In this document: one piece after another, positions 14 through 24,366 of the stretch
Layout of the letters: each line of letters begins with the position of its first letter
Numbering within the stretch: the first letter of the stretch is position 1
From: Gaiellaceae bacterium
Lineage (GTDB): Bacteria > Actinomycetota > Thermoleophilia > Gaiellales > Gaiellaceae
Direction of reading: 5' to 3'
Assembly: GCA_036558065.1 (NCBI GenBank)
Contig: DATBGG010000035.1
Span: 1-55,360, forward strand
Length of the DNA: 55,360 nt
Program-made: the position numbers and the translations under genes
The notes under the pieces: model-generated
What the model was told of the DNA's origin: nothing
The model's database searches: none
The model's input: only the letters and a program-made list of their open reading frames with translations

Positions 14-1345
14 ATGAGCACGATTACGCAGCCCGAGCTCGAGTTCGAAGAGCTGCGTCCACCGCTCGGAGACACGGAGGCCGTGGTCGAGGCCGACCGC
101 TGTCTCGAGTGCGGCGGGCCCCACGCCCCCGCTCCCTGCGCTCTCGCCTGCCCGGCCGAGGTCGACGTGCCCGGGTTCATCGTTCAGATCGCCGAAGGAA
201 ACCCCGGAGCGGCCGCCTCCACGATCTTCGAGGAGAACATCCTCGGAGGGACGTGCGCGCGCGTCTGCCCGGTCGAAGTCCTGTGCGAGGCCGCCTGCGT
301 GCTCGACCGCGAAGGCCGTCGGCCGATCGCGATCGGCGCGCTGCAGCGCTACGCGACCGATCGGTTCTTCGAGCACGGCACGGCGATCCGCGCGAAGGCG
401 GCGCCGAACGGCCGCCGAGTCGTCGTGATCGGCGCGGGGCCGTCCGGGCTCACCTGTGCAGCGGAGCTCGCCGCGCGTGGCTACGCCGTCACCGTCTTCG
501 ACGAGCGCGAGGAAATCGGCGGGCTCGTCCGCTACGCGATCGCTCCCTACCGCCAGGTTCGCGATCCCCTTCCCGACGAGGAGCGCGCCCTCACCGAGCT
601 CGGGGTCGAGCTTCGGCTCGGAACGAGGGTCGAGAGCCGGGAGCAGCTCCAGGCGCTGGCCGACGGCGCGGACGCGGTGTTCCTCGGAGTCGGTCTCGGC
701 GCGGACACCAAGATTTCGTACCCGGGCGACGACCTGCACGGCGTGTGGGAGTCGCTTCCCTTCATCGAGGCGATCAAGACCGGGCGGGCGCCGCGCGTCG
801 GGCGCCGGGTGGTTGTGATCGGAGGCGGTAACACCGCGATCGACGTCGCGCGCGAGGCGGTCCGGCTCGGCGCGGACGACGTGACGATCCTCTACCGGCG
901 CACCGAGAGCGAGATGCCCGCCTACCCGCACGAGATCGACGAGGCGCGCGAAGAGGGCGTCGGGTTCCGCTTCCTCGCGGCTCCGGTCGCGTTTCTCGGA
1001 GAGTCGCTCCTCGTCGAGGTGGAATGCCTGGAGATGGAGCTCGGCGAGCCGGACGACTCGGGGCGCCGCCGGCCCGTCCCACGCGACGGCTCCAGGTTCA
1101 CGATGCCGGCCGACACGGCCGTCAAGGCGATCGGCCAGGAGGCCCGCTCGGAGCTGGCCGCCTGGGTCGACGGGCTCGAGCTCGACCGGGGCAAGGTCGA
1201 GGTCGACGAGGACGGCCGGAGCGGCAATCGCAAGTTCTTCTGCGGCGGAGACGCGGTCAACGGCGGCGCGAGCGTCGTCGAAGCGGTACGCGACGGAAAG
1301 CGCGCGGCGCAGGCGATCGACCGGGAGCTCTCATGCCCGAGCTGA
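14..1345 (+). CDS. GltD/PreT-like NAD(P)H:FAD oxidoreductase with N-terminal Fe-S cysteine clusters (glutamate synthase small-subunit family)
   Basis: 443-aa ORF. Cys-rich N-terminus (CLECGG...CALACP; GGTCARVCPVEVLCEAAC). Two dinucleotide folds (VVVIGAGPSGL, VVVIGGGNTAID). Overlaps the next gene by 13 nt. Confidence 0.85.
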   Translation: MSTITQPELEFEELRPPLGDTEAVVEADRCLECGGPHAPAPCALACPAEVDVPGFIVQIAEGNPGAAASTIFEENILGGTCARVCPVEVLCEAACVLDREGRRPIAIGALQRYATDRFFEHGTAIRAKAAPNGRRVVVIGAGPSGLTCAAELAARGYAVTVFDEREEIGGLVRYAIAPYRQVRDPLPDEERALTELGVELRLGTRVESREQLQALADGADAVFLGVGLGADTKISYPGDDLHGVWESLPFIEAIKTGRAPRVGRRVVVIGGGNTAIDVAREAVRLGADDVTILYRRTESEMPAYPHEIDEAREEGVGFRFLAAPVAFLGESLLVEVECLEMELGEPDDSGRRRPVPRDGSRFTMPADTAVKAIGQEARSELAAWVDGLELDRGKVEVDEDGRSGNRKFFCGGDAVNGGASVVEAVRDGKRAAQAIDRELSCPS

Positions 1346-1869
1346 CCGAGATCCGCTGGCATGCGCGCGCCGGCCAGGGCGCGAAGACCGCCTCGCAGCT
1401 GCTCGCACTGGCCCTCCTTCGCTCCGGCCGGAACGCCCAGGCCTTCCCGGAGTACGGGCCCGAGCGCAGAGGCGCGCCGTTGCGCGCCTACACACGCGTC
1501 TCCGACCAGCCGATCCGGCGCCACGACGCGATCGAGCATCCCGACGTCGTCGTCGTGCTCGAGCCATCGCTCGTCGGCGAGTCGGGCGTGAGCGAAGGGC
1601 TCGACTCCGAGAGCGTCGTCCTTCTGAACGCGGACACAGCGCCGGCCGAGCTCGCCGCGCGGCGCGTCCATTGCGTTCCCGCCTCGCGGATCGCGGCCCG
1701 GCAAGGCTCGAGCTTCGGCAACATCGTCATGGTCGGAGCGGTCGCCGCAGCGATCGGCGAGCCGCCGCTTCAAGAAGTGCAGGAGGCTGCTGTCGAGCTG
1801 CTCGGCAGGAAGCTGCCGCCCGCGTCAGTCCGGGAGGCCGTCGCGGAGGGCTACCGATGCCTGAGCTGA
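1333..1869 (+). CDS. porC: 2-oxoacid (pyruvate):ferredoxin oxidoreductase gamma subunit
   Basis: ATG at 1333 inside a longer ORF-track frame. 178 aa starting MPELTEIRWHARAGQGAKTASQLLA, typical of the OFOR gamma subunit. 13-nt overlaps on both sides. Confidence 0.85.
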   Translation: MPELTEIRWHARAGQGAKTASQLLALALLRSGRNAQAFPEYGPERRGAPLRAYTRVSDQPIRRHDAIEHPDVVVVLEPSLVGESGVSEGLDSESVVLLNADTAPAELAARRVHCVPASRIAARQGSSFGNIVMVGAVAAAIGEPPLQEVQEAAVELLGRKLPPASVREAVAEGYRCLS

Positions 1870-2147
1870 GCGGCTGGAACGAGCTGCCGGTAGGCGGCGT
1901 CGTCGTCCCGGACGAGTCGTCACGCCCGCGAACCGGGGGTTGGCGAACGGGCGTCAAGCCTGAGGTCGACCTCTCGAAGTGCGTGAACTGCCTGCTCTGC
2001 TGGCTCTACTGCCCGGACTCGGCCGTCGAGCTCGACGGGACGACGTTCACCGGATTCGACCTCACCTATTGCAAGGGCTGCGAAATCTGCGCCGAGGTCT
2101 GCCCCGTCGACGCCGTGACCATGGTCCCCGAGGAGGCCGCGTCATGA
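1857..2147 (+). CDS. porD: 2-oxoacid:ferredoxin oxidoreductase delta subunit (2x[4Fe-4S] ferredoxin-like)
   Basis: 96 aa from ATG 1857. Two CxxCxxCxxxCP motifs (CVNCLLCWLYCP, CKGCEICAEVCP). Confidence 0.85.
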   Translation: MPELSGWNELPVGGVVVPDESSRPRTGGWRTGVKPEVDLSKCVNCLLCWLYCPDSAVELDGTTFTGFDLTYCKGCEICAEVCPVDAVTMVPEEAAS

Positions 2148-3304
2148 TCGAGACGCCGCTGAGGCTGATGACGGGCGGCGAGGCTGTCGCCGAAGCGATG
2201 CGACAGATCGACCCGGACGTCGTCCCCGTCTATCCGATCACGCCGCAGACCCCGATCATCCAGGGCTTCGCGAAATTCGTCGCAGAAGGCAGGGCGCACG
2301 CGGAGCTCGTCAACGTCGAGTCCGAGCACTCCGCGATGAGCGCCGCGATCGGCGCCGCGCTCGCCGGCGGCCGGACGATGACCGCCACGTCCTCGCAGGG
2401 CCTGGCGCTGATGGCCGAGGTCGTCTACATCGCCGCGAGCATGCGCGCCCCGATCGTGATGGCGGTCGGCAACCGGGCGCTCTCCGGGCCGATCAACATC
2501 CACTGCGACCACTCGGACTCGATGCTCGTTCGCGACTCGGGCGTCGTCCAGCTCTTCGCCGAGAACGCGCAGGAAGCGTACGACCTGACGGTGATCGCGC
2601 CGCGGCTCGCCGAGCACCCCGACGTGCTCCTGCCGGTGCTCGTCTGCCAGGACGGCTTCACGATCACGCACTCCGCCGAGCCGGTCTCGCTGCTCGAGGA
2701 CGACGAAGTCTCCCGGTTCGTCGGCGGCTACGACCTGCCTCGACGCATGCTCGACACGCAGTCTCCGACGACCCAGGGGCCGTTCGCGATGCCGGACTAC
2801 TACTTCGAGCTGCGCCGCCAGCAGACGCGCGCGCTCGAGCTCGCGCTCGACGTCTTCGCCGAGCTCGCCATGGAGTACGAGGAGCTGTCGGGCCGCGCCT
2901 ACGGCCCCCTTGACGCGTATCGGGTCGACGGCGCGGACCGCGCGATCGTGTCGCTCGGCTCGTCGGGCGGAACGATCAAGGACGTGGTCGACGAGCTGCG
3001 GGACGAGGGCGAGGCGACCGGACTGCTCGAGATCGTCTCGTTCCGGCCGTTCCCACACGAGCGGGTGGCCGCCCTGCTCCAGGACGCTAGCTCCGTGATC
3101 GTGCTCGACCGCGCTGATTCCCCGGGTGGAGCCGCGCCGCTCTACGCCGAGGTGGCCGCGGCACTCCACGACACCGGTGTCGCGCTCACCGGGCACGTCT
3201 ACGGCCTGGGCGGCCGCGACCTGCACCCCGAGGATGTCCGCCGAATCTTTGCGGGCCACGCCGAGCGCTACGTCGGTCTGCGAGGTGAGCCGTGTCCCGT
3301 CTGA
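2144..3304 (+). CDS. porA: 2-oxoacid:ferredoxin oxidoreductase alpha subunit
   Basis: 386 aa from ATG 2144 (ATGA overlap with the porD stop). Contains VYPITPQTPI and NVESEHSAMSA, typical of OFOR alpha. Confidence 0.9.
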   Translation: MIETPLRLMTGGEAVAEAMRQIDPDVVPVYPITPQTPIIQGFAKFVAEGRAHAELVNVESEHSAMSAAIGAALAGGRTMTATSSQGLALMAEVVYIAASMRAPIVMAVGNRALSGPINIHCDHSDSMLVRDSGVVQLFAENAQEAYDLTVIAPRLAEHPDVLLPVLVCQDGFTITHSAEPVSLLEDDEVSRFVGGYDLPRRMLDTQSPTTQGPFAMPDYYFELRRQQTRALELALDVFAELAMEYEELSGRAYGPLDAYRVDGADRAIVSLGSSGGTIKDVVDELRDEGEATGLLEIVSFRPFPHERVAALLQDASSVIVLDRADSPGGAAPLYAEVAAALHDTGVALTGHVYGLGGRDLHPEDVRRIFAGHAERYVGLRGEPCPV

Positions 3305-4239
3305 AGACACTCGTCCGCAACGAAGCCGGCGTGCCGCCGCTCGCCGGAGGGCACGCCCTCTGCCAGGGCTGCGGCGTCCCGCTCGTCGTGCGCACGGTGC
3401 TGAACACGTTCACGCGGCCGGTGGTCGTCGTGAACGCGACGGGATGCCTCGAGGTCGCCACGACGCGCTACCCCGCGACTGCGTGGAACGTCCCCTGGCT
3501 GCACGTCGCCTTCGAGAACGCGGCGGCGGTCGCGAGCGGTGTCGAGAGTGCCCAGCGCGCACTGCGCAAGCGGCACGCGCTTCCGGCCGACGAGGAGGTC
3601 GCGATCGTCGTGTTCGCCGGCGACGGCGGCACCTACGACATCGGGCTCCAGGCGCTCTCGGGAGCGCTCGAGCGCGGCCACCGGTTCCTCTTCGTCTGCT
3701 ACGACAACGAGGCCTACATGAACACCGGCATCCAGCGCTCCGGCGCGACGCCCTTCGCAGCCGCAACGACCACGAGCCCGGCCGGCGACGCGAGCTTCGG
3801 CAAGGCCCAGCAACGCAAGGACATGACCGCGGTCGCGGTCGCACACCACGTGCCCTACGCGGCGCAGGCCGCCGCGTCGCACTGGCACGACCTGAGCGTC
3901 AAGGTCGAGCGGGCCGCGGCCGCCGACGGCCCCGCCTTCCTGAACGTGCTCACGGACTGCCCGGTGGGCTGGGGCCACGAGCCGCGCCTGTCCCTTCGAG
4001 TCCTGAACGCCGCGGTCGACAGCCTCTTCTGGCCTCTGTACGAGGTCGTCGACGGCCGCTATCGCCTGACCTATCAACCGGACGCCGTCGTTCCGATCGA
4101 GGACTGGCTCCGCCCGCAGAAGCGCTTTGCGCACCTGCTCGGCCCCGAGCGCCGCGGGCTCGTCGAGGAGATCCAGCGACGCGTCGACGCGGACTGGGAA
4201 GACCTGCTCCGCCGCTGCCAAGGAGGTGATCCGACGTGA
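3292..4239 (+). CDS. porB: 2-oxoacid:ferredoxin oxidoreductase beta subunit (TPP-binding)
   Basis: 315 aa, GTG start. CQGCG near the N-terminus and a TPP motif (FAGDGGTYDIG...CYDNEAYMNTG). Confidence 0.9.
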   Translation: MSRLKTLVRNEAGVPPLAGGHALCQGCGVPLVVRTVLNTFTRPVVVVNATGCLEVATTRYPATAWNVPWLHVAFENAAAVASGVESAQRALRKRHALPADEEVAIVVFAGDGGTYDIGLQALSGALERGHRFLFVCYDNEAYMNTGIQRSGATPFAAATTTSPAGDASFGKAQQRKDMTAVAVAHHVPYAAQAAASHWHDLSVKVERAAAADGPAFLNVLTDCPVGWGHEPRLSLRVLNAAVDSLFWPLYEVVDGRYRLTYQPDAVVPIEDWLRPQKRFAHLLGPERRGLVEEIQRRVDADWEDLLRRCQGGDPT

Positions 4240-4445
4240 CCCGAACGCTGGTCGTCACCTGCCCGGTTCCCTGCGACGACCTCGCCAGGCTCGAGCTGAA
4301 CCCGCTCGACCACACGATCGAGGTCGTCGGCCCGGGCGGCTTCCGGCACGATCTCGAGCTGCCACTCGACGCCGACATGTCCCATCTGCACGTCGAGGTG
4401 TACCGGGGCGTCCTGGAAGTCCGCGCGCCGCGACGAGCTACGTAG
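4236..4445 (+). CDS. Small (69 aa) protein, possibly a minimal alpha-crystallin/Hsp20-like beta-sandwich
   Basis: GTG start in a GTGA overlap with the porB stop. AGGAGG at 4221-4226, 9 nt upstream. Very high GC3. C-terminal HVEVYRGVLEVRAP resembles the last strand of ACD proteins. Confidence 0.5.
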   Translation: MTRTLVVTCPVPCDDLARLELNPLDHTIEVVGPGGFRHDLELPLDADMSHLHVEVYRGVLEVRAPRRAT

Positions 4446-5241
4446 AGAGGTCGCGGCGGGAGAAGAGCCAGGGGGCGAGCGCCGTCGCGGCGACCGCGAT
4501 CGCGAGGAGCACCGCCAGGTGACCCGGCGCGAGGCCGTGCCGGAGCGGGTCTCCGGCAGCGTAGTAGTAGAAGGGCGAGAGCTTCTGCGGCCCCTCGAGC
4601 GCGTGAACGAGCGGCGCGAGACCGTTGACGAGGTACGCCGCGACCCCGAGCGCGGCCGTCACGCCGATCGTCAGGCTCCGCCGCCCGCTCGCAGCGCCGA
4701 CGAGCACCGCGATCGCGCCGTATGCGATCGCGAGGAGGACCGCTGCGAGCGTCGCCGCCGCCAGGTGCCCTGCCGAGACGTCCATGCCCACCGTCAGCGC
4801 CCCGATCTCCAGCGCCAGCCACAGCACGAGCCCGAGGCCGGCGATCTCGATCGCGAGCGCCAGCGACTTCTCGAGCACGACGCGGGCTCGCGACACCGGG
4901 TTCGCGAGGAGCATCTCGAGCGTCCCGCGCTCCTCCTCCCCGGCGATCGTCCCGGCTCCCGTGGCGATCGCCGCGACGAGGAAGAGGAGCGGCACCATCA
5001 GCGAGAAGAGCTCGATCCCGAGGAACCCGGCCGCGGAGGCGTAGTCGACCTGGCCGCCGAAGGCGATGAACGCCTGGAGCGCCCTCGGGTAGTCCTCGGC
5101 CAGCCGCTTCAGCGCAGGGTTCGAGTGCACGGTCGGATACACGGAGACGATCAGCGCCACGAAGCCCGCGAGCCCGAGGCTCCACCAGAGGAACCCTCTC
5201 CGCACGTCCCGCAGGCTCTTCAGCGCGACGTTACGGAGCAT
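4438..5241 (-). CDS. ABC-2 type transporter permease
   Basis: Start taken at MLRNVALKSL (ATG 5241), overlapping the ATPase stop by 11 nt. Multi-TM protein typical of ABC-2 permeases. Confidence 0.75.
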   Translation of the reverse strand: MLRNVALKSLRDVRRGFLWWSLGLAGFVALIVSVYPTVHSNPALKRLAEDYPRALQAFIAFGGQVDYASAAGFLGIELFSLMVPLLFLVAAIATGAGTIAGEEERGTLEMLLANPVSRARVVLEKSLALAIEIAGLGLVLWLALEIGALTVGMDVSAGHLAAATLAAVLLAIAYGAIAVLVGAASGRRSLTIGVTAALGVAAYLVNGLAPLVHALEGPQKLSPFYYYAAGDPLRHGLAPGHLAVLLAIAVAATALAPWLFSRRDLST

Positions 5242-6130
5242 CCGCGCCAGCCCCTCGGTAAAGCGCCATGAAGACGTCCTCCAGGTCTGCCTCGTGCACG
5301 TCGAGCGCACGCACGTGAAAGCGCGCGAGCGTCTTGAGCAGCGGGTCGATCTCGCCTTCGAGCGACAGGCGGACGACGTCGCCGTGGCGGTCCAGCTCGT
5401 TCACGCCCGGGACCCCCGCGAAGGCGTCACGCGGAGGGGGCTCGGCGAAGGTCGCCTCGACGTGCGTGAACGAGCGGGCGCGCAGGTTCTCGACCGTGTC
5501 GACGAGGTCGAGGCGGCCCTCGCGGATCAGTCCGACCCGGTCTGCCACGTGTTGCACTTCGGAGAGGACGTGGGAGGAGAGGAAGACGGTTCCGCCGCGC
5601 CCCGTCGCCTCGGCGACCAGCTCGTAGAAGGTCTCCTGGACGAGCGGGTCGAGCCCGCTCGTGGGCTCGTCGAGCACGAGCAGGTCCGGGTCGTGCATGA
5701 AGGCCTGGACCAGGCCGATCTTCTGCCGGTTGCCGCGCGAGAGCTCCTTGACCCGGCGGTCGAGGTCGAGGTCGAGGCGCCGCGCCAGCTCGTCGCCCTT
5801 GCCTCGGGCACTGCGCAGGTGAGCGAAGAACTCGAGCAGCTCACGGCCCGTCATCCGCTCGTACAGGCGAAGGTCGCCCGGCAGGTAGCCGAGACGGCGC
5901 CGGATGGCCACGCTGTCGCGCCGGGAGTCGAGGCCGAACACGCTCAACCGGCCGCTCGTGGGGCGGATCAGGTCGAGGACCAGGCGAATCGTCGTCGTCT
6001 TGCCGGCGCCGTTCGGCCCGAGGAAGCCGAACACCTCTCCGGTCTCGACCGAGAAGTCGACGTCGACGATGCCGCGGTTCTGTCCGTAGCTCTTCGTCAG
6101 CTGCTCGGCGCGGATGACCTCCGCCACCAA
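5231..6130 (-). CDS. ABC transporter ATP-binding protein
   Basis: Walker A GPNGAGKTT, signature LSRGNRQK, Walker B LLVLDEPTSGLD. TTG/GTG start at 6130/6127. Confidence 0.9.
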   Translation of the reverse strand: MVAEVIRAEQLTKSYGQNRGIVDVDFSVETGEVFGFLGPNGAGKTTTIRLVLDLIRPTSGRLSVFGLDSRRDSVAIRRRLGYLPGDLRLYERMTGRELLEFFAHLRSARGKGDELARRLDLDLDRRVKELSRGNRQKIGLVQAFMHDPDLLVLDEPTSGLDPLVQETFYELVAEATGRGGTVFLSSHVLSEVQHVADRVGLIREGRLDLVDTVENLRARSFTHVEATFAEPPPRDAFAGVPGVNELDRHGDVVRLSLEGEIDPLLKTLARFHVRALDVHEADLEDVFMALYRGAGADAP

Positions 6131-6148
6131 GACAGCATCACACGATCG

Positions 6149-7231
6149 TCATGCAGCCGCGGCCACCTCCAGCCTCAACCCGCCCATCGCGGCCGGCTGG
6201 TTCGAGGCGAGCGCCGCGACGAGCTTCCCTCCGCGCGCCCGATAACGCGCGATGAACGACTCGTGCGTGCCCTCGAGCTCGACCTCGTCCGCATGGGTCG
6301 TGTCGCCGACGAGCTGCAGCCGTAGCCCGAACTGGTCGGACCAGAAGAACGGCGGCTGCTCCGGGAGCGGATCGAGCTCGAGGATCCTCCTCGCCACACC
6401 GACCGCTTCGGCCGCGGCACCGGTCCAGTGACCCCGGCTGCCCGCGTTGTCGCCGCACGCGTAGATCGGCGGCTCGACCTCGGCGCCGAGCTCGTGGGCC
6501 GGTTGCACACCGACGGCGACGAGGACGACGTCCGACTCGACGACGCCGCCGTCCGCGAGCTGGACACCCTGCACGCGGCCGCCGGGCAGCGAGCGGAAAG
6601 CCGCCGCGGCCGTCTCCGTCTTGATGTCGACGCCGTGGTCGATATACCGCTCGGCGAGCCTGGCCCCGAGCTCGGGCCCGAGCGCCCGCTCGAAGGGCGC
6701 AGAGCCGGCCTCGAGGAGCGTCACGTCGACTCCGAGCTTGCTGGCAGTCGACGCGACCTCGGCGCCGACGAACCCGCCGCCGACGATCGCGAGCCGCACG
6801 CCCGGAAGAAGCTCTCGCCGAAGCGCATACGCGTCGGCGAGCGTCCGCAGCACGTGCACTCCGGACGGCGTGTCGAACGGAAGCCGGCGTGCGCGGGCGC
6901 CGGTGGCAAGCACGAGCGCGTCCCAGCGGAGGACCCGGCCGGAGCTCGTCGTCGCGGTCTGCCGCTCACGGTCGACCGAGGCGACCCGCTGGCCGAGGAG
7001 GAGCTCGATCTGTTGCTCCGTCCAGAAGGAGCCGGGCCGCAGGAAGAGCTTCGATGCGCTCTTCTCTCCTGACAGGAACTCCTTCGAGAGCGCCGGACGC
7101 TCGTAAGGAGCGAACGGCTCCTCGCCGACGAGGACGAGCTCGCCGTCGTAGCCCTCCGCGCGGAGCGTCTCGGCGCAGCGGGCGCCGGCGAGGCCGGCGC
7201 CCACGACGAGGATGGAGCGCGGCTCGCTCAT
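6149..7231 (-). CDS. FAD-dependent NAD(P)H:ferredoxin reductase (putidaredoxin/rhodocoxin reductase type)
   Basis: 360 aa. ILVVGAGLAGARCAETLR and LAIVGGGFVGAEVA dinucleotide folds. ATGA overlap with the ferredoxin stop. Confidence 0.85.
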   Translation of the reverse strand: MSEPRSILVVGAGLAGARCAETLRAEGYDGELVLVGEEPFAPYERPALSKEFLSGEKSASKLFLRPGSFWTEQQIELLLGQRVASVDRERQTATTSSGRVLRWDALVLATGARARRLPFDTPSGVHVLRTLADAYALRRELLPGVRLAIVGGGFVGAEVASTASKLGVDVTLLEAGSAPFERALGPELGARLAERYIDHGVDIKTETAAAAFRSLPGGRVQGVQLADGGVVESDVVLVAVGVQPAHELGAEVEPPIYACGDNAGSRGHWTGAAAEAVGVARRILELDPLPEQPPFFWSDQFGLRLQLVGDTTHADEVELEGTHESFIARYRARGGKLVAALASNQPAAMGGLRLEVAAAA

Positions 7232-7425
7232 GCCGCTTCCTCCTCGACGATCAGGATCGCGGCCATGGGGCAGGCCGCGGCAGCATCGAGCACTGCGGGG
7301 TCGTCGGACGTGCCGACGCGAGCTGTGGCGTTGCCGCTCTCGTCGAGCTCGATGACGTCCGGAGCAAGCTCGGCACAGGCGCCGAAGCCGCTACACAGCG
7401 ACCGGTCGATCTGGATTCGGTACAC
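7228..7425 (-). CDS. Small single-cluster ferredoxin
   Basis: 65 aa from GTG 7425, preceded by AAGGAGG. YRIQIDRSLCSGFGACAELAP...ACPMAAI is typical of actinobacterial 3Fe/4Fe ferredoxins. Confidence 0.8.
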   Translation of the reverse strand: MYRIQIDRSLCSGFGACAELAPDVIELDESGNATARVGTSDDPAVLDAAAACPMAAILIVEEEAA

Positions 7426-7978
7426 GGTTTCCTCCTTGTTTCGGGGTTGGTCGAACGGGACGGTTGAGCGCGCGCCAGGCGGTCGCGAAGACGACCGCGC
7501 CGACGGCGCCGACGTACAGCGAGAAAACCCACGGCGTCGGCGTGTCGGTGCCGGCCGCAAGGCCGTGGAGCGTGGCCAGCCCGAAGATGGCGTAGGTCGC
7601 CCAGTGCAACTTGCGCCACGCTTTCATCCCGATCCGCTTGCGCAGCGGGAACGAGAGGATGACGAGCATCATCAGGTCGAGGGCGAGCACCCCGAGCGCG
7701 GTCCACAACGGCCGATACGGCGCAAGCCCGGGGACCAGGAGCGCGGTGGGGCTGATCCGGACCGTCGAGTCGAGCACGAGCGTCATGCCGTGGAGCGCGA
7801 CGGCGCCGAGACCGAGGGTGGCGAGAAAGCGGTGCGTGTCGGTGACAGCGCCGGCGCTGAGCGCCCGGCCGAACGGGCGCGCCTTGAGGACGAGCCCGGC
7901 GAGCACCGAGAGCGTCAGCAGGAAGTACGCGGTGAGACCGCTGGCGCGCGCGAGGATCCAGAAGGTCGGGTCTCTCAT
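7391..7978 (-). CDS. Ferric-reductase-domain (MsrQ/YedZ/NOX-like) heme b membrane protein
   Basis: 195 aa, about 6 TM segments. His pairs H-x13-H (HRFLATLGLGAVALH) and H-x12-H (HWATYAIFGLATLH). ATGA overlap with the ApbE stop. Confidence 0.75.
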   Translation of the reverse strand: MRDPTFWILARASGLTAYFLLTLSVLAGLVLKARPFGRALSAGAVTDTHRFLATLGLGAVALHGMTLVLDSTVRISPTALLVPGLAPYRPLWTALGVLALDLMMLVILSFPLRKRIGMKAWRKLHWATYAIFGLATLHGLAAGTDTPTPWVFSLYVGAVGAVVFATAWRALNRPVRPTPKQGGNRVPNPDRPVAV

Positions 7979-8823
7979 GCGAGGCCTCCCACCAGGCGCG
8001 TCCGGCCGTCGGCCGTAACGAGGACGCCCGGCAGCCCACGCATGTCGGCTTCGAGAGCGGCTTCCTCCTCGCCGGCGATGTAGAGCGCCTTCGCCCAGAC
8101 CTCCGCCTCGACCGCGTTGGAGGCGACGACCGTGACCCGGAGCAGGTCGCTCGGCGAGGGAGAGCCCGTCGCCGGGTCGATGAGATGGTGAAGCTCCTTC
8201 CCGTTGCGCCGCCAGCGCCGGCGGTCGCGGCCGGAGGTAGCGAGACCGCCATCCGTCAGCTCGAGGGTCAGGTCGCCGCCGGGCCTCTCGACTCCGACGG
8301 GCCAGGTTCCGCCCTTGACGGCGACGTCCCCGCCCGCGTTGACGAGCGCCGGCCCTGCTGCCGACAGGAGATCTGCGGCACGGGCCGCCGCGTATCCCTT
8401 GCCGATCCCGCCGAGATCGAGGCGCACGCCCGGATCGAGCTCGATGCGGGAGCCCTCGATCCGGACCGCGCCGCCGCAGACGGAGCCGACGATGACAGCG
8501 GTGCCGTCCTGGGGAAGCTCGTCGAAGGACCGGTCGTAGCCGGCCCCGACCACTGCGTCGTGGACGGTCGGGTCGAAGCGGCCGTCGGTGCGCGCGCGCG
8601 CGGCGAGGGCGAGCTCGACCACCTCGCGCAGCTCGGGGCCGGTCTCGAGCGACCCCGCCTCGTTCAGGCGGGACAGCTCGGACCGGGGCCGGAAGCGGGT
8701 GAGGATCGCCTCGAGCCGGTGGAACTCGCTCTCAGCGGCCGCGAGGGCCTCATCCGCTCCAATCGCGTCCACGAGCAGCTCGATCTCCGTGCCCATCGCC
8801 CGGAAGCGCCGCGACTCGATCAC
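7975..8823 (-). CDS. apbE: ApbE-family FAD:protein FMN transferase
   Basis: RAMGTEIELLV, SELSRLN, GGIGKGYAA and HHLIDPATG motifs. Start taken at GTG 8823 (GTGA overlap with the upstream stop). No evident signal peptide. Confidence 0.85.
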   Translation of the reverse strand: MIESRRFRAMGTEIELLVDAIGADEALAAAESEFHRLEAILTRFRPRSELSRLNEAGSLETGPELREVVELALAARARTDGRFDPTVHDAVVGAGYDRSFDELPQDGTAVIVGSVCGGAVRIEGSRIELDPGVRLDLGGIGKGYAAARAADLLSAAGPALVNAGGDVAVKGGTWPVGVERPGGDLTLELTDGGLATSGRDRRRWRRNGKELHHLIDPATGSPSPSDLLRVTVVASNAVEAEVWAKALYIAGEEEAALEADMRGLPGVLVTADGRTRLVGGLA

Positions 8824-9155
8824 GACGTCCTCGTCGTGGTCAGCGGCGGCAGGTTCACGACGCGTACCGGCGGGGCGGCGGCGATCGCCTGGGCCTGGGC
8901 CTGCTTGGCCGCGGCGATCCGCGACTGCCGCTTGCGGAGCTGGGCGCGGTAGACGGCCCAGCGGTGCTTGACGAGCCGCTGGACGGCGGCGCTCTCGACC
9001 CGCAGCCGCTGCTCGCGCTTCGCCAGCGCGACCAGGCGCGAATCCTGGGCCGACGGGCTCGCTGCCCAAGGTCGTGCTCCGATCGCGACCCACATCAGGA
9101 AGAAGACGAAGAGGCCGGCGGCGATCGAGTAGAGGCGGCCGACGTGGTTAGTCAT
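8820..9155 (-). CDS. Hypothetical membrane-anchored coiled-coil protein
   Basis: 111 aa from ATG 9155, with GGAGGTG upstream. One N-terminal TM segment (LYSIAAGLFVFFLMWVAIG), then an Arg/Gln-rich helix and a Pro-rich tail. Confidence 0.6.
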   Translation of the reverse strand: MTNHVGRLYSIAAGLFVFFLMWVAIGARPWAASPSAQDSRLVALAKREQRLRVESAAVQRLVKHRWAVYRAQLRKRQSRIAAAKQAQAQAIAAAPPVRVVNLPPLTTTRTS

Positions 9156-9525
9156 CGTCGCTCTCACCTCCGTGACCGTGGCCGCCATGATCGTCGTCGT
9201 GCTCGTCTTCCGACTCGTGACTTCCGCTGCCCGCCGCTACGACGACGACGGGTGCCGGGCGCCGGACGACGACGGCCTGCCGCTGAGCCGGCGGCGACCG
9301 TCGCGCCGCGGGGACCGCAGGCAGCGCCGGCGGCTTGTCGCGTCGCGCGCGCGAGATCTGGCGCTCGACCTTGTCCAGCTGCTTGGCGCGAGCCGCGACG
9401 GCCGCATCCGAGACGCCTCCCGTGGCCGGAGCACGAAGCCCCGCGGTCCGGGTCGCCGCTGCGACGCCGAGCGCGCCGGATGCTCCGAGGATCAGCGCTA
9501 CGACTGTGGCGTGAATCTTGTTCAT
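9148..9525 (-). CDS. Hypothetical exported protein with an acidic, His-rich C-terminal tail
   Basis: 125 aa from ATG 9525, with GGAGG upstream. Signal-like MNKIHATVVALILGASGALGVAAA. The tail is SGSHESEDEHDDDHGGHGHGGESDDD. 8-nt overlap with the next gene. Confidence 0.6.
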   Translation of the reverse strand: MNKIHATVVALILGASGALGVAAATRTAGLRAPATGGVSDAAVAARAKQLDKVERQISRARRDKPPALPAVPAARRSPPAQRQAVVVRRPAPVVVVAAGSGSHESEDEHDDDHGGHGHGGESDDD

Positions 9526-9746
9526 CTCGACCTCCAGTGCTTGACGTCGTGAAGGTAGGCGGGCCTCGGTAAGGCCCGGGTCAGCCGAAGGCAAGGATTC
9601 GGTAGGGCCAGGCAAAGCTTCGGAAAAGCCGAAAAACCGGCTCAGGAGGTCATCCGTATTCGCCCACAGCGCAGATCGGCAGGTCGTCCGATGCGCGTGG
9701 CGGATCCCCGATCGATGATGTGCAGGTCAGCGAAAGGGAGGCGAGC

Positions 9747-10166
9747 ATGACCACGCTCACCCGATGGATGCCTCTCTCCGAGTTCCCGATCGAGCGCCGG
9801 ATGCGACGCATGCTCGACGACATCGGCTTCGGGCCGTTCACCGTTCCCGCAGCCGATTTCTACGAGACCGATCGCGACTTCGTGATCGAGGTCGAAGCTC
9901 CCGGCTTCGACGAGAAGGAGCTCGGAATCGAGGTTTCCGATCACACGCTGACGATCGAGGGCGAGCGGAAGACCGAGACCCGCGACGAGCCGGAGAAGAC
10001 GTTCCGGTTCCACGAACGTCTGGAGACGACGTTCGAGCGGCAGTTCTATCTTCCGCCGGAGGCCGACACGCACAACGTCGAGGCGACGTTCACGAAGGGT
10101 GTGCTCGAAGTGCACGTCCCGAAGGTCGCCGAGGCGAAGCCTCTGAAGGTCCCGATCGGCACGTGA
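9747..10166 (+). CDS. Hsp20/alpha-crystallin small heat-shock protein
   Basis: 139 aa from ATG 9747 (GGGAGG upstream). The ACD core runs FVIEVEAPGF...LTIEGER...GVLEVHVPK. Confidence 0.9.
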   Translation: MTTLTRWMPLSEFPIERRMRRMLDDIGFGPFTVPAADFYETDRDFVIEVEAPGFDEKELGIEVSDHTLTIEGERKTETRDEPEKTFRFHERLETTFERQFYLPPEADTHNVEATFTKGVLEVHVPKVAEAKPLKVPIGT

Positions 10167-10308: not shown

Positions 10309-10767
10309 ATGAGCATCACGAAGGATTTCCGGTATCACGTCGGCGTCGCCTGGGAAGGCGGTCGCATCACGAACGTCAACTCACCGGACAAGCCGGACCT
10401 CACGGTCGCTACGCCGCCCGAGTTCAAGAACGGTGTCCCCGGTGTCTGGTCTCCCGAGGACCTGCTCGTCGCCTCGGTCGCCTCCTGCTACACGGTGACC
10501 CTGGCTGCGGTCGCGGAGCGCCGGGATCTGCCGCTCTTCCAGCTCGAGGTAAGCGGGACGGGTCACGTGACCAAGCGCGACGACGGCCGGTTCGGCTTCG
10601 TCGCGATCGAGCTCACGGCGCTGATCTGGACGGCCGAGGCCTCGGTCGACGCGATGGAGCGAACGGCGCACTACGCCGAGCGCGCATGCATGGTCGCGAT
10701 GGCGCTCGACGTTCCCGTGCACCTCGACATCGTCGTTCGACCTGGGGTCGAGCTGGTCGCCGTCTGA
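10309..10767 (+). CDS. OsmC/Ohr-family peroxiredoxin-like protein
   Basis: 152 aa. WSPEDLLVASVASCY and AERACMVA motifs carry the two conserved Cys. Confidence 0.85.
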   Translation: MSITKDFRYHVGVAWEGGRITNVNSPDKPDLTVATPPEFKNGVPGVWSPEDLLVASVASCYTVTLAAVAERRDLPLFQLEVSGTGHVTKRDDGRFGFVAIELTALIWTAEASVDAMERTAHYAERACMVAMALDVPVHLDIVVRPGVELVAV

Positions 10768-10793
10768 TCAAGGCTCGACCGGGGGCCGGACGA

Positions 10794-11489
10794 TTGAGCA
10801 GACGGACGTACGCAGCAGTCGGCGCGATCGCCTTGCTCGTGGCGGCGGCGCTGATCTCCGCAAGCCTGATCGGCGCCCGGGGCGGTCAGCCCGCCCGGGC
10901 CGAGCAGCTCTCGAAGGACGACTCCTCCATCCTGCTGCGGGGTATCCCCCAGTCCGGACCGATCCTTGGGCTCCCGGACGCGCCGGTGACGCTCGTCGAG
11001 TTCGCCGACCCCCAGTGCCCGTACTGCGCCCAGTGGTCGCAGCAGGCATTCCCCGAGCTGGTCCGCGACTACGTGCGACCCGGCAAGGTACGGATCGTCT
11101 TCGCAGGACTGGCGTTCATCGGCCCGGACTCCGACGAGGCTCTTCGCTTCGTGCTCGCCGCGGGCCGCCAGGGCAAGCTCTGGCCGGTCGTCGACCTCCT
11201 GTACAAGAACCAGGGCGCGGAGAACTCGGGCTGGGTCAGCGACGGCTTGCTCCGCGAGGTCGGTGACGCCGTTCCGGGGCTCGACGTCGAGCGGGCTCTC
11301 CGCGAGAACCACTCGCCGCCGGTGGAGCGCGAGCTGGCTGCAGCAAGGGATCTCCAGGCTCGGCTCGGCGTCCGCTCGACGCCCGCCTTTGCTGCGTCGG
11401 GTGCAGGCGGCACGCTTGCTCCCGTGCAGATCACGAGCCTCGACGCCGGCGGTATCCGACCGGCTCTCGACACCCTGCTCGCTCGGTGA
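10794..11489 (+). CDS. DsbA-family thiol:disulfide oxidoreductase, membrane-anchored
   Basis: CPYC active site in VTLVEFADPQCPYCAQW, with an N-terminal TM anchor. Start is uncertain: TTG 10794, or CTG 10764 overlapping the osmC stop. Confidence 0.8.
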   Translation: MSRRTYAAVGAIALLVAAALISASLIGARGGQPARAEQLSKDDSSILLRGIPQSGPILGLPDAPVTLVEFADPQCPYCAQWSQQAFPELVRDYVRPGKVRIVFAGLAFIGPDSDEALRFVLAAGRQGKLWPVVDLLYKNQGAENSGWVSDGLLREVGDAVPGLDVERALRENHSPPVERELAAARDLQARLGVRSTPAFAASGAGGTLAPVQITSLDAGGIRPALDTLLAR

Positions 11490-11887
11490 GCGATCGCCGG
11501 CTGCGCCTCGCAGTAGGCGTGCTCTCGACCGCAGGGGCGGCCGTGGCGGGTTACCTCGTGTACGCCCGCTACACCGACACGACGCTCGCGTGCGTCACGG
11601 GAGGCTGCGAGACCGTCCAGCGCTCCGACTACGCGGTGCTCGCCGGGGTGCCCGTCGCCGTGCTTGGGCTCGTGGCCTACCTCGTCCTCCTGGCGACGGC
11701 GTTCTCGACGAGTGAGCTCGCTCGCCTCGTGGGCGCCGTCGTCGCCGTGTCCGGCGCGCTCTTCGCCGCCTACCTGCTCTATGCACAGATCGTCGTCATC
11801 GACGCGGTCTGCCAGTGGTGTGTCACCAGCGACGTCCTGATTGCGCTGCTCGCGGTGACGTGCGTGCTGCGGCTGCGCTCAGGCTAG
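11486..11887 (+). CDS. Vitamin K epoxide reductase (VKOR) family protein
   Basis: 133 aa, 4 TM segments. Loop Cys pair (CVTGGC) and CQWC redox motif. GTGA overlap with the dsbA-like stop. Confidence 0.85.
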   Translation: MSDRRLRLAVGVLSTAGAAVAGYLVYARYTDTTLACVTGGCETVQRSDYAVLAGVPVAVLGLVAYLVLLATAFSTSELARLVGAVVAVSGALFAAYLLYAQIVVIDAVCQWCVTSDVLIALLAVTCVLRLRSG

Positions 11888-15602: not shown

Positions 15603-16498
15603 GCGGGCGCCGGCGAGACGCGTCTTCGCGCCGGGAGCGCGACGAGAATCGCGCCGGCCGTGATCAGGACCGCGCCGCCCAGGTCGAAGGCCACTCCGTC
15701 GGCCACGCGCGAGAGCACGGCCGTGACGACGGCGCCGAAGACGAGGACGGCGGTCACATCGACCGCCTGCGCCCGGGCGAGCGCCGCGAACCAGGTCGCC
15801 ACGTAGCCGGCCAGGATCAGGCCGGTCAGCAACACCCAGCTCCACTGGTCGCCCGACAGCGAGAAGAGCTGGTCGGCACGCCCCGAGACCACGACCCAGC
15901 CGAGCAGCACGGCCGTTCCGAGCGTCATGCGCGCCATCCCGAGGAGCCGGGAGTCGAGGTCCGCGAGCAGCTTCTTCGCGACGATGATCTCGACCGCCCA
16001 GAGCAGCGTCGCCGCGAAGATCATCGCCTCGCCGGAGCCGAAGGCGACCGTGCCTGCATCACCCACGAGCCAGGCCTGCCCGGCGACGAGCAGCGCGATG
16101 GCGGCCAGATGCGGCCACCCGAGGCGCTCGTGCAGGAGCGGCACCGCGATCAGCGCGACCCACACGACCAGCGTCTTCTGAATGAACGCCGCCTGCGTCG
16201 CCTCCGCGCGCGCGAGCCCCTCGAAGAAGAGCACGAACGGCACGCTGCCGCCGATGACGGCGATCGCGAGCAAGCCGAGCCGGTGCTTGCGGATGCTCGG
16301 GAGCTCGCTGCGCGGGCCTCCGAGCAGCGGTGCCGCGAGCGCGAGCAGGAGGACGCCCGCCACGGCGTTCTTCGCGGTGGTGTAGACGGTCGCGTCGCCG
16401 AAGTGCTTCACCGCATGGCCGTTGACGAAGATCGCGACGCCGCTGATCAGCGCGGTCACGAACGCAAGGGCGACTCCGGTCGCGCGGGTCGAGCTCAT
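15599..16498 (-). CDS. EamA/DMT-superfamily transporter
   Basis: 299 aa, about 10 TM segments, two-repeat EamA-like organisation. ATGA overlaps at both ends. Confidence 0.85.
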   Translation of the reverse strand: MSSTRATGVALAFVTALISGVAIFVNGHAVKHFGDATVYTTAKNAVAGVLLLALAAPLLGGPRSELPSIRKHRLGLLAIAVIGGSVPFVLFFEGLARAEATQAAFIQKTLVVWVALIAVPLLHERLGWPHLAAIALLVAGQAWLVGDAGTVAFGSGEAMIFAATLLWAVEIIVAKKLLADLDSRLLGMARMTLGTAVLLGWVVVSGRADQLFSLSGDQWSWVLLTGLILAGYVATWFAALARAQAVDVTAVLVFGAVVTAVLSRVADGVAFDLGGAVLITAGAILVALPARRRVSPAPA

Positions 16499-16713
16499 TC
16501 AACGCCTCCTTCGCTTCGCAATGCCATGGCTTCCTGGGCCGCTTCGGGATCGAGAACCTCGACGGGCACGCCCAGATGGACGAGCACGTGGTCGCCGTCC
16601 CGCGCGTCCGGGACGAACGCGAGCGGGACGACCTTGCCGCAGCCGAGCCGTCCGACGCGGGCGTCGCCGTCCTCCCAGGACTCGGCCAGCACGTCGATCG
16701 AGCCGAGGCACAT
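16495..16713 (-). CDS. hypC: HypC/HybG/HupF-family hydrogenase assembly chaperone
   Basis: 72 aa, with N-terminal MCLG and GDHVLVHLG motifs. Confidence 0.9.
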   Translation of the reverse strand: MCLGSIDVLAESWEDGDARVGRLGCGKVVPLAFVPDARDGDHVLVHLGVPVEVLDPEAAQEAMALRSEGGVE

Positions 16714-16982
16714 CAGGCTGCCTCCTCGACCTCGACGCTCTCCAGCACGACGCCCTGCGCGTGCTCACCGGTCGTGTCGTCGTCGAGCACGGCTTCGACC
16801 TCGGCGCCCTCGGCGATCGTGCCGCGTGCGGCGTCGCGGTAGTGCTCGCGGAAATGCTCGGGCGTGAAGTGCGAGAGGGCGCCGAGGCGAACCGAGACTC
16901 GGGTGACGCCTCTCGCACCTTCCGTCTCGGCAACGGACACGATCTGGGAGATCAGGTCCCGCATCAGCGCCTGCTCGTGCAT
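16713..16982 (-). CDS. hypA: HypA-like nickel metallochaperone lacking the zinc-finger domain
   Basis: 89 aa from ATG 16982. N-terminal MHE nickel motif. Colinear with remembered HypA, but it contains no cysteine at all. Confidence 0.7.
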   Translation of the reverse strand: MHEQALMRDLISQIVSVAETEGARGVTRVSVRLGALSHFTPEHFREHYRDAARGTIAEGAEVEAVLDDDTTGEHAQGVVLESVEVEEAA

Positions 16983-17428
16983 CCGGCCTCCTCGAGGACG
17001 AGCTCGACGGCGCGCTCGACACCCGCCTGCGCGCCCGGGCTGAGGTCCGTGCCCGACCCGAAGACCTCGCCCTCGATCCCGAAGACGACGATTTGCTCCG
17101 GCAGGCGCCCGAGCGCGCGGGCGAGCTCGATCGTCTCGCCGATCCCGAGCGCGTGCGTGGACGAGCGGAACTCGCGGCTCGGCAGTGCCTCGCGGGTGGC
17201 ATCGAAGCGGTGGACGGTCCCCGGCTCGGCACCGGATGCGACAGCGTCGACCACGAGCGCCGCCTGCGCCCCGTCCCAGGCGTCGATCAGGCGGGTCGGC
17301 TCCAGCTCGCACACGACGACGTCGAGCTCGTCCGACACGCGGTCCTGGACGAGGCGGGCGACCTCGCGGCCGGCTCCGTCGTCGCCCCGGTACGCGTTGC
17401 CGACCCCGATCACGACGGTGCGGCTCAC
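16964..17428 (-). CDS. Hydrogenase maturation endopeptidase (HycI/HoxW-type)
   Basis: 154 aa from GTG 17428 (GTGA overlap with the large-subunit stop). [16 protein letters not shown] and HALGIGE motifs. Confidence 0.85.
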
Positions 17429-20323: not shown

Positions 20324-20768
20324 AGAGGTCGGCGAGCCTCAGCCGCGTCGCGTTCAGGCGCTCGAGGAGCACCGCCGAGAAGCGCGTCATCAGCTCGTAG
20401 CCCAGCAGCGGGTCGGCCTCGCACTTCGTGCGCAGACAGGCTCCGTTCACCACGATCGCGCGCACTGGGGCGACCGCCCGCGCGTCGAAGTGCCACGTAT
20501 GCGGCGGGAAGAGCCACGACCAGCCGACGACGTCGCCGGCCTCGATCGTCTCGATCGTCATTGCGCCACGACCGGGGACGTAGAGCTCGAGGGCGACGCG
20601 TCCCTTGCGCAGGATGTAGAAGACGTCCGCCGGCTCTCCTTCACGGAACAGGGTCTCGCCGGCTTCGAACCCGATCGTCTTCGAGCAGCCCGCGAGCTGC
20701 TCGGGGCACCCTTCGCAGAGCCCGGCGAACAAAGGTGAGTCGAGCACGACCTGGTCAAGCGTTTTCAT
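20301..20768 (-). CDS. Cyclic-nucleotide-binding-like (CAP effector) domain protein without a DNA-binding domain
   Basis: 155 aa. [21 protein letters not shown] beta-roll signature. Overlaps hyhB by 14 nt and hyhG by 23 nt. Confidence 0.8.
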
Positions 20769-23024: not shown

Positions 23025-23101
23025 TGGGGCGGGTAGTTGCCCGTACTCGTGTCCGCGGAAGCCCGGATGGCCCACGCTTCGCTTCGGGGCAACCTGTGTC
23101 C

Positions 23102-24355: not shown

Positions 24356-24366
24356 AGGAGGACGAG

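Follow-up and report, generated by a model that had tools for sequence, protein, structure and literature searches.

Ferric-reductase-domain (FRD)/NOX-type proteins are the main cellular route by which single electrons cross a membrane, whether for superoxide production, iron and copper reduction, or periplasmic repair. An operon from a Gaiellaceae bacterium raises the question of how such a membrane core might be supplied with electrons when no dehydrogenase domain is fused to it, and where those electrons would go. The operon lies in a stretch of 55,360 nucleotides (nt) (GenBank assembly GCA_036558065.1, contig DATBGG010000035.1, positions 1-55,360 of the forward strand), hereafter the window, which has a G+C content of 70-71% and whose proteins find their nearest matches in metagenome-assembled genomes (MAGs) labelled Gaiellaceae or Thermoleophilia. 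An earlier reading made from the letters of this DNA (the original prediction) had seen here a split NOX-like chain, in which NAD(P)H would feed, through a ferredoxin reductase (FdR) and a ferredoxin (Fd), the hemes of a membrane protein and then an acceptor on the outside. We found that the operon contains a conserved unit of six genes, coding for two small membrane proteins (A and B), an ApbE-family protein, the FRD protein, the ferredoxin, and FdR. Gene content, motifs, conservation, and coupling are directly established, and at this genomic level the finding is solid. To the fuller reading, that the locus specifies a regulated, multisubunit NOX-type transmembrane electron-transfer system made of separate polypeptides, we would give an even chance.

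Gene layout, conservation, and upstream region

The minus strand was read base by base from 9720 to 7150, and this reading was combined with the open reading frame (ORF) list. Together they bear out the eight densely packed minus-strand genes between 9525 and 4438 that had been described originally:

9525-9148, minus strand: gene A, 125 aa
9155-8820, minus strand: gene B, 111 aa
8823-7975, minus strand: ApbE, 282 aa
7978-7391, minus strand: FRD protein, 195 aa
7425-7228, minus strand: ferredoxin, 65 aa
7231-6149, minus strand: FdR, 360 aa
6130-5231, minus strand: ABC ATPase, 299 aa
5241-4438, minus strand: ABC-2 permease, 267 aa

The junctions are in general those of the original prediction (start-stop overlaps, with gaps of 18 nt or less), except that the overlap between the FRD and ferredoxin genes is longer, at 35 nt. 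A and B overlap by 8 nt, B and ApbE by 4 nt (GTGA), ApbE and FRD as well as ferredoxin and FdR by 4 nt (ATGA in both cases), and the ATPase and permease genes by 11 nt, with an 18-nt gap between FdR and the ATPase. Ribosome-binding sites of the GGAGG type precede A (GGAGG before its ATG), B, and the ferredoxin gene (AAGGAGG before its GTG start). Hidden Markov model (HMM) searches of all eight products against Pfam recovered the ApbE, Ferric_reduct, Fer4_15, Pyr_redox_2 plus Reductase_C, and ABC families (the transporter pair hitting ABC_tran and ABC2_membrane_2); neither Pfam nor NCBIfam had a match for A or B, and NCBIfam offered only generic resemblances for the cluster products.

A scan of GTDB species representatives yielded 77 loci (cited below as L with a number), of which 69 are actinobacterial and were mapped by tblastn and HMM searches; these come mostly from Gaiellales and other Thermoleophilia, with FRD identities from 95% down to 44%. 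With the proviso that the loci are mostly MAGs, some from long reads with frameshifts, and that tblastn counts underdetect the low-complexity protein A, we found B upstream of FRD in 65 of the 69 and A, by its family HMM, in 62 of the 64 that have enough flank; ApbE lies exactly between B and FRD in 52 and anywhere in the locus in 60, and downstream of FRD the ferredoxin is present in 64 and FdR in 48. The conserved unit consists of A, B, ApbE, FRD, ferredoxin, and FdR. Its translational coupling is likewise retained: the stop of B overlaps the start of ApbE by 4 nt in about 55 loci, the FRD-ferredoxin junction measures -4 or -35 nt, and the ferredoxin-FdR junction measures -4 or -1 nt in nearly all loci. 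The order FRD-ferredoxin-FdR, whose conservation in related genomes the original prediction had proposed to check, is thus kept together with its coupling in approximately 50 to 64 of the 69. The ABC pair probably is cotranscribed with the operon in the window; since it follows FdR only in L003, L004, L005, and L009, it is a lineage-specific appendix outside the conserved system. The original grouping of all eight genes therefore holds for their packing and not for this pair, which recurs in the four closest relatives only.

Clustering of the neighborhood ORFs found, beyond the genes of the cluster, no family common to more than approximately 14 loci, and no conserved extracytoplasmic acceptor, MsrP, FMN_bind protein, VIT1, or metal transporter among them. 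Neither a P450 nor an oxygenase recurs in these neighborhoods, in keeping with the original remark that no P450 accompanies the ferredoxin and its reductase here.

More distant loci depart from the six-gene arrangement in an instructive way. In two actinomycetota (L062 and L063, with FRD identities of 58% and 44%), B-ApbE-FRD occurs with an A-family ORF just upstream and with no Fd or FdR; in L063 an ECF-sigma-like gene follows FRD. Four Chloroflexota loci (L068-L071) have the order A-like protein, ApbE (with the AExxAK motif described below), a Pro-rich single-pass protein, a six-helix FRD protein, and then a response regulator and a histidine kinase; the A-like protein has an anchor, a coiled coil, and a His/Asp/Glu tail, and the Pro-rich protein ends in (I/S)SGGS. 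A clostridial MAG (L077) encodes, in this order, a small acidic transmembrane protein, ApbE (AEVLAK), a five-helix FRD protein, a response regulator, and a histidine kinase. Neither the Chloroflexota nor the clostridial modules contain Fd or FdR. The HMMs of A and B gave no significant match to the small proteins of these two phyla (E = 0.5 for B against the Chloroflexi B-like protein); we accordingly treat the small proteins outside Actinomycetota as analogues of A and B by architecture, their homology not being detectable. Comparison of these loci points to an old core of one or more small transmembrane proteins, a signal-less ApbE with an E…K metal site, FRD, and a two-component system. The Fd/FdR pair would be a donor module added mainly in Thermoleophilia, because A-B-ApbE-FRD occurs without it in L062 and L063 and analogous modules do so in Chloroflexota and Clostridia.

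Two elements were recognized upstream of A:

9590-9628, minus strand: three direct repeats, CTTTTCC-N4-CTTTGCC-N14-CCTTGCC, a putative OmpR/PhoB-type regulator site
9552-9557, minus strand: -10-like hexamer TACCTT, a conserved column (TACCGT or TACGGT in relatives)

The repeats are kept in an upstream alignment of 12 relatives, with CTTTGCC at an 11-bp and then an approximately 21-bp spacing, and the 55-kb window has a single instance of the pattern CTTTGCC-N4-CTTTGCC, where chance predicts 0.1. The hexamer is a probable promoter element of the operon, judging from its conservation. In L007, L008, L016, and L029 the ATG of A stands 8-9 nt past it, which implies a leaderless A transcript in those loci. 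A scan of the window with sigma-70 and terminator consensus patterns gave nothing useful. In approximately 45 relatives A is adjoined by an orthologous pair, a response regulator of the OmpR/PhoB type and a HAMP histidine kinase, either divergent or codirectional. Against NCBIfam, these linked proteins resemble generic OmpR/PhoB, CreBC, BaeSR, or heavy-metal-like regulators, all below cut-off, and the periplasmic sensor domain of the kinase (~150 aa) has no Pfam match. No cognate two-component system is present within the 55-kb window, though the repeats are kept there. The 195-nt intergenic region that holds them is shared with a divergent Hsp20 gene (9720-10166, plus strand).

Protein families of the conserved unit

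The FRD protein has histidines at positions 49, 63, 125, and 138, which form the H-x13-H and H-x12-H pairs of the original prediction. In an alignment of 24 homologues these four residues are invariant and R50 is nearly so. All 24 match the Pfam Ferric_reduct family (PF01794; best E value, 4.1e-8), and the window protein itself does so with an E value of 2.5e-5 and 24.8 bits (the gathering score is 28), which together place it in the PF01794 FRD superfamily by sequence. An AF2 model with five predicted transmembrane helices was obtained from the 24-sequence alignment; it is of low confidence (predicted local distance difference test [pLDDT], 58) and was used for a coarse fold search only. With this model, Foldseek gave as best matches SpNOX (8qq7; probability 0.99, E = 0.077) and STEAP1/2/4 (TM-score of ~0.53-0.55), and a PDB sequence search with the FRD profile retrieved nothing even at E = 10. 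The helices correspond to h2 to h6 of the FRD fold. The first helix, h1, appears to be absent because the protein starts at the "DP" loop, which follows h1 in MsrQ. Strongly basic stretches, namely the loops at 32-45 and 113-121 and the C-terminal tail, mark the cytoplasmic side, so the N terminus is predicted to lie outside and the C terminus inside. The chain ends 23 residues past the last helix, and no fused C-terminal FAD/NADPH dehydrogenase domain was found in it by Pfam (no PF00175 or PF08022/PF08030 match).

The spacing of the histidines allows a direct comparison with characterized members of the fold. In MsrQ and STEAP an Arg occupies the position of R77 of MsrQ and a flavin the inner site, whereas NOX and DUOX have a heme-ligand His there (PMC12525009). 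By the spacing map that follows from that work, R77 to H91 of MsrQ (x13) corresponds to H49 to H63 and H151 to H164 (x12) to H125 to H138 (after PMC12525009), so that His49-Arg50 of the window protein sits at the Arg77-Arg78 position of Escherichia coli MsrQ. Because His49-Arg50 replaces R77-R78, we classify the window protein by its sequence as NOX-type, with a bis-heme pattern, and not as MsrQ-type; the YedZ/MsrQ names that JGI gives to its homologues are probably misassignments. Two motifs of the outer face, APYRPLWTGLG and AG(T/S)D (window residues 83-96 and 143-145), are kept from Thermoleophilia to Chloroflexota and Clostridia, and may form, at the outer heme, the site of the acceptor or of the heme propionates.

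The ferredoxin belongs to the Fer4_15 family (3e-12; Fer4_13, 4e-8). Across 62 orthologues C11, C17, C52, and P53 are invariant, and the fourth position is occupied by Phe in 57 of them and by Tyr in the other 5. With just three invariant cysteines and Phe/Tyr at the fourth position, it is predicted to be of the single-cluster [3Fe-4S] type (C11-x2-F/Y-x2-C17…C52-P53). FdR combines Pyr_redox_2 (7.5e-53) with Reductase_C (6.4e-11) and resembles the HcaD (1e-68) and AndAa (1e-63) ferredoxin reductases, scoring below their NCBIfam equivalog cut-offs. These features identify it, at the level of sequence, as a FAD-dependent ferredoxin-NAD(P)+ reductase of the putidaredoxin-reductase-like kind. It probably prefers NADH because a Glu closes the second Rossmann strand (VTLLE). 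The net charges are -9 for the ferredoxin, -10 for FdR, -12 for ApbE, and +13 for the part of B that follows its transmembrane helix.

ApbE was recovered with strong statistics both in Pfam (4.7e-55) and against PDB entries for E. coli ApbE (4xgw/2o18) and Thermotoga maritima TM1553 (1vrm), at approximately 1e-22. It opens with MIESRRFRAMGT, which is directly the first strand of the mature domain, and all orthologues start M(M)ERRxFRAMGT, with neither a signal peptide nor a lipobox. The signal-less ApbE of the original prediction is thus a property of every orthologue, and from it we predict a cytoplasmic protein. The motifs DLGGIxKG, ATSG, and HHLIDP, including the catalytic His and Ser, are retained as invariant columns, and the "GxY" that follows ATSG is changed to "GRD". 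A further change affects the Mg site, where E…K stands in place of D…T (AExxAK; AEVWAK in the window), with Glu in 61 of 61 and Lys in 55 of 61 aligned orthologues; the canonical counterparts are EADAWDT in E. coli ApbE and ADALST in TM1553. We take these positions to be the Mg ligands on the strength of the T. pallidum Ftp structure. In some loci (L015 and L019 types) there is a second signal-less ApbE paralogue, with Glu-x3-Thr instead of AExxAK, beside a small protein ending in "…DD".

Cytosolic ApbEs are known elsewhere, e.g., in Klebsiella pneumoniae, and have canonical FMN_bind domains as substrates (reviewed in PMC12052999). Here, no FMN_bind, DUF2271, or DUF3570 substrate was found, A, B, the extra small proteins described below, and the Chloroflexi analogues all being without a Pfam match; nor does an [ST]GA[ST] motif occur in the FRD loops, the ferredoxin, FdR, A, or B, the sole S-G-A of A lying inside its N-terminal anchor and being followed by Leu. 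No MsrP (Oxidored_molyb) was detected in the cluster or among the scanned window proteins, which do not include every window ORF, and none recurs in the 69 loci. For the small ORFs and the cluster neighbors, the Pfam and NCBIfam searches hence agree with the original failure to find an FMN_bind or MsrP partner.

The two small proteins A and B had been called unclassifiable and exported; the first epithet stands, as no family matches them, and the second is unproven, both being single-pass membrane proteins that might lie either way round. In A, an N-terminal anchor leads into a coiled coil, after which come KPPALP, the strand motif RVVYxRPAPxVV, and a C-terminal tail that is rich in His/Asp/Glu and ends in DD. 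Its anchor is predicted to stay uncleaved, given the frequent Leu or Val at position -1. B starts with MT(S/N)HxxRLY and continues with a transmembrane helix, a long basic helix, and a variable Ala/Pro linker, and its C-terminal end reads VRVVxLPPxTxTRTS-COOH; in the alignment T2, H4, R7, L8, Y9, V97, V100, L102, P103, P104, T108, T110, and S111 are invariant. In the AF2 model of B (pLDDT, 81), residues 4-26 and 39-93 are helical, and the tail (94-111) is disordered. A profile search among 1.8 billion cluster representatives assigned 355 clusters to the B family, none of them annotated. For both A and B the flanking-charge counts of the positive-inside rule are ambiguous.

Long homologues of B (230-490 aa) that look like A-B or B-ApbE fusions were considered as evidence on topology and rejected, being frameshift chimeras of metagenome gene calls; those of B read through in the frame upstream of ApbE ("…DHEDVVMERR…"). 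Chimeric A/B/ApbE entries among public metagenome proteins are P0271, P0278, P0286, P0293, P0316, P0341, P0342, P0378, and P0388, and the in-frame A-B ORF of L019 is likely to be a similar frameshift artifact.

Many relatives encode, past Fd and FdR, extra single-pass proteins of approximately 70 aa with acidic ends ("…SDD", "…ADD", or "…WDD") like that of A. The regions concerned are as follows:

L015, 9885-11541: extra small-protein region
L019, 8908-10288: extra small-protein region
L022, 8780-8995: extra small-protein region
L037, 8752-9018: extra small-protein region
L042, 8774-8998: extra small-protein region

Proposed electron route and its rivals

From this gene content we infer a direction of electron flow, heme binding, a role for ApbE, a topology for A and B, and an acceptor. 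In the cytoplasm, FdR would oxidize NAD(P)H, likely NADH, and then reduce the acidic [3Fe-4S] ferredoxin, from which single electrons would enter the five-helix FRD protein at its cytoplasmic face; two bis-His hemes (H49/H125 inner, H63/H138 outer) would relay them to the outer face. As far as it goes, the chain of the original prediction, from NAD(P)H through FdR, ferredoxin, and hemes to the outside, remains the most economical reading of the gene order, the coupling, and the four-His FRD protein, but it leaves ApbE unexplained. Cytoplasmic ApbE, A, and B are conserved at least as well as Fd and FdR and would be obligatory partners of FRD. A NOX-type core ordinarily requires a flavin beneath the inner heme. 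Because the cytoplasmic ApbE is the only universally linked flavin-related protein, it would provide that flavin, either by flavinylating the Ser/Thr-containing C-terminal tail of B or by holding FAD itself. The basic helix of B could dock the acidic ferredoxin, FdR, and ApbE at the membrane. A would be anchored with its N terminus inside and its C terminus outside, presenting its His/Asp/Glu-rich tail at the outer face; on account of that tail, the acceptor is most likely a metal ion (Fe3+ or Cu2+) bound on it, with O2 as an alternative. An OmpR-type two-component system would switch the operon on via the repeats upstream of A. That the cytoplasmic ApbE with its altered metal site installs or holds a flavin on the inner face of FRD, at its most specific as FMN on the terminal Ser/Thr of the B tail, a noncanonical site, is a tentative proposal of low probability.

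ApbE could supply the flavin in either of two ways. One is that the cytoplasmic ApbE is a true FMN transferase whose substrate is the C-terminal tail of an N-out/C-in B; like an arm, the tethered FMN would then swing from the ferredoxin to the inner heme, taking the place of the FAD in the NOX dehydrogenase domain. The overlap of the B stop with the ApbE start in approximately 55 loci, the invariant, Ser/Thr-rich, disordered tail, the retained catalytic His and Ser of ApbE, and the +13 charge of B past its helix, which suits the cytoplasm, all favor such an arrangement, as do the SSGSS or TQGS ends of divergent B proteins and the (I/S)SGGS end of the Chloroflexi B-like ones, which come near [ST]G[AGS][ST]. 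Flavinylation of a C-terminal tail has a precedent in FMN_red proteins (PMC11334425), and flavin tags are most effective at protein termini (PMC12052999), making terminal tags and tails good ApbE substrates. In most B proteins, however, the Gly-Ala of the motif is Arg-Thr and there is no upstream Asp, some distant homologues have extra residues beyond the tail, the Mg-site Thr of ApbE is Lys, the B HMM misses the Chloroflexi B-like proteins (E = 0.5), and the flanking charges do not fix the topology; on balance we regard FMN on B as unlikely. Alternatively, the ApbE-like protein might be a stable FAD-holding subunit on the cytoplasmic face of FRD that stands in for the dehydrogenase flavin of NOX, with B as its anchor. 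ApbE is the most conserved partner of FRD over three phyla, signal-less and abutting the FRD gene, its D…T to E…K change is systematic and extends to the Chloroflexi and clostridial copies, no canonical substrate is encoded nearby as judged by Pfam, and FAD-bound ApbE has its isoalloxazine ring exposed (PMC12052999). Against it stand the retained catalytic His (HHLIDP) and Ser (ATSG), the want of a nearby ApbE in L007, L008, and L016, and the second paralogue with E…T in some clusters. ApbE is not known to act as a redox protein, and this second option seems to us distinctly improbable.

A different division of the locus would make Fd and FdR mere neighbors that serve a P450 or oxygenase elsewhere and would have FRD fed by some other donor, possibly quinol, an assumption formerly made for MsrQ. 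Ferredoxins of the window type do usually serve P450s. The core occurs without Fd and FdR in L062, L063, Chloroflexota, and Clostridia, and seven loci have the ferredoxin with no FdR nearby. Yet approximately 50 loci, with FRD identities as low as 58%, keep the FRD/Fd and Fd/FdR overlaps, the neighborhoods show no recurring P450 or oxygenase, and recent work on MsrQ disfavors a quinol donor (PMC12525009), which leaves such a separation quite unlikely. The most remote of the alternatives takes the module for an accessory redox or metal sensor, with the adjacent histidine kinase reading the redox state of the FRD/ApbE/A/B complex. It would account for the linkage of response regulator and kinase to the FRD-ApbE module in three phyla and in varied orientations, and for the periplasmic sensor domain of ~150 aa that matches nothing in Pfam; but the repeats upstream of A resemble an ordinary regulator-target layout, the window and its closest relatives keep operon and repeats with no two-component system within 55 kb, and a dedicated NADH-ferredoxin feed line suggests real electron flux. 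We therefore consider a sensory function very improbable.

Several observations also weigh against the NOX-type electron-transfer system that we prefer over these. The window FRD protein scores under the Pfam gathering cut-off (24.8 versus 28 bits), and confidence in its AF2 model is low (pLDDT, 58). Since A-B-ApbE-FRD stands without Fd and FdR in L062 and L063, as do analogous modules in Chloroflexota and Clostridia, this pair cannot be the sole donor route. On the side of the flavin, the altered Mg ligands (E…K) make the transferase activity of ApbE uncertain, the T-R-T-S of the B tail departs from the D-x-x-[ST]-G-A-[ST] flavinylation motif, and L007, L008, and L016 are without ApbE within 8 kb. 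The flanking charges of A and B leave their topology unsettled, and neighborhood clustering showed no linked transporter for iron or copper.

Genomic setting and comparison with known systems

Other redox functions are encoded in the window around the operon. On the plus strand, a four-subunit 2-oxoacid:ferredoxin oxidoreductase (within 14-4239) converges on it, preceded by a flavoprotein:

14-1345, plus strand: Fer4_20 plus Pyr_redox_2 protein of the GltD/SudA type, ahead of the oxidoreductase
~1331-1869, plus strand: gamma subunit (POR gamma)
~1870-2147, plus strand: delta subunit (Fer4)
~2141-3304, plus strand: alpha subunit (POR_N)
3292-4239, plus strand: beta subunit (TPP_C)

This oxidoreductase is a second possible source of reduced ferredoxin, and a few relatives, e.g., L003 and L037, likewise have its genes close to the cluster. 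Next to it, a 69-aa ORF (4236-4445, plus strand) containing …HVEVYRGVLEVRAP looks by eye like a short Hsp20/alpha-crystallin fragment; it converges on the end of the permease gene and is found in four relatives. Adjoining the operon on its other side are a DsbA-like thioredoxin and a VKOR protein (10686-11887, plus strand), which point to extracytoplasmic disulfide-bond formation. A second disulfide system, DsbA-like plus DsbB, lies at 49137-50491 (minus strand), with PspA-associated protein B (PspAB) adjoining it at 50495-51064.

At 16495-21945 (minus strand) there is a NiFe-hydrogenase cluster; besides the large and the small subunit it encodes an Fe-S subunit of the NAD_binding_1/DHODB kind and one with Fer4_22. 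It resembles group 3 hydrogenases (bidirectional or sulfhydrogenase-type), and a NiFe hydrogenase is also found near the cluster in L042; HypC-type chaperone-like and maturation endopeptidase-like ORFs beside it were recognized by eye only. A Pyr_redox_2 flavoprotein, by eye possibly a sulfide:quinone oxidoreductase, is followed by a DsrE/DsrF-like protein (23024-25209, plus strand), which suggests a small sulfur-handling module. A small anchored protein at 44798-45208 (minus strand), 35 kb from the operon, has a weak PepSY match (8e-5, just under cut-off); PepSY-like proteins are a flavinylation-associated class. An Rfam scan of the window found tRNA only.

The arrangement in which a ferredoxin line replaces the dehydrogenase domain is widespread in uncultured soil Thermoleophilia, and it makes the locus a natural test of the minimal parts of a NOX-type core. 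The locus offers a concrete candidate for one of the substrates of "orphan ApbEs" that flavinylation surveys have left open. If FMN were indeed attached to the B tail, this would be the first intracellular non-FMN_bind ApbE substrate within a transmembrane electron exporter, and the dehydrogenase domain of NOX would prove to be replaceable by a posttranslationally attached cofactor. If the acceptor were Fe(III) or Cu(II), the system would constitute a new route of reductive metal acquisition in an abundant soil lineage.

Among described systems, the nearest are the MsrQ-like flavinylation-associated clusters, of which 1797 have been reported, mostly from Actinobacteria, and for which a role in iron reduction has been suggested (Méheust 2021, eLife; PMC8238504). 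They share with the present locus a PF01794 cytochrome next to apbE, a mainly actinobacterial distribution, and a proposed path from a cytosolic donor to an extracytosolic acceptor. Unlike those clusters, which have an FMN_bind gene, a secreted or lipidated ApbE, and usually a fused NAD-binding domain (PF00175) or a NuoF-like protein, the locus has no FMN_bind gene, no exported ApbE, and no fused NAD domain and instead combines a cytoplasmic ApbE with an altered metal site, a separate [3Fe-4S] ferredoxin with its FdR, and A and B as obligatory members. The pipeline of that survey demanded a signal peptide in one target gene and, as described, would miss the present cluster (PMC8238504). The label "split NOX" of the original prediction is apt in so far as a NOX-type core is served by separate donors, but the concept itself is not new, given Fre-MsrQ and the clusters just mentioned.

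With NOX proteins (SpNOX 8qq7, csNOX5, and NOX2), the FRD protein has in common the bis-His core spacing H-x13-H and H-x12-H in its transmembrane helices and a His-Arg pair at the inner site; it differs from them in having no fused FAD/NADPH domain, in apparently lacking h1 (five transmembrane helices), and in an input split between FdR and ferredoxin. The E. coli MsrQ-Fre pair, known as a "two-component NOX-like system", provides the parallel of an FRD-family membrane protein that receives its electrons from an NAD(P)H oxidoreductase which is soluble and separate, as is proposed here. MsrQ, however, has one heme and a noncovalent FMN at R77/R78, where the residue of the window protein matching R77 is the NOX-type His49, and, in contrast to MsrPQ, the present system is without MsrP, has a ferredoxin between reductase and membrane protein, and includes ApbE, A, and B. 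In lacking an export signal, its ApbE is like the cytosolic ApbE of K. pneumoniae and like the ApbE domains found in fumarate reductases of trypanosomatids; those, however, flavinylate the FMN_bind domain of a soluble fumarate reductase, whereas here no such domain is present and the Mg site is E…K. The class I P450 chains of actinomycetes use the same FdR fold (Pyr_redox_2 plus Reductase_C) and a Fer4_15-type ferredoxin (Cxx?xxC…CP), and they differ in their end partner, which in the present case is not a P450 but a translationally coupled FRD protein of the bis-heme type. Set against all of these, what appears from the sequences to be new is the ferredoxin/FdR line, the altered metal site of ApbE, and the two protein families represented by A and B.

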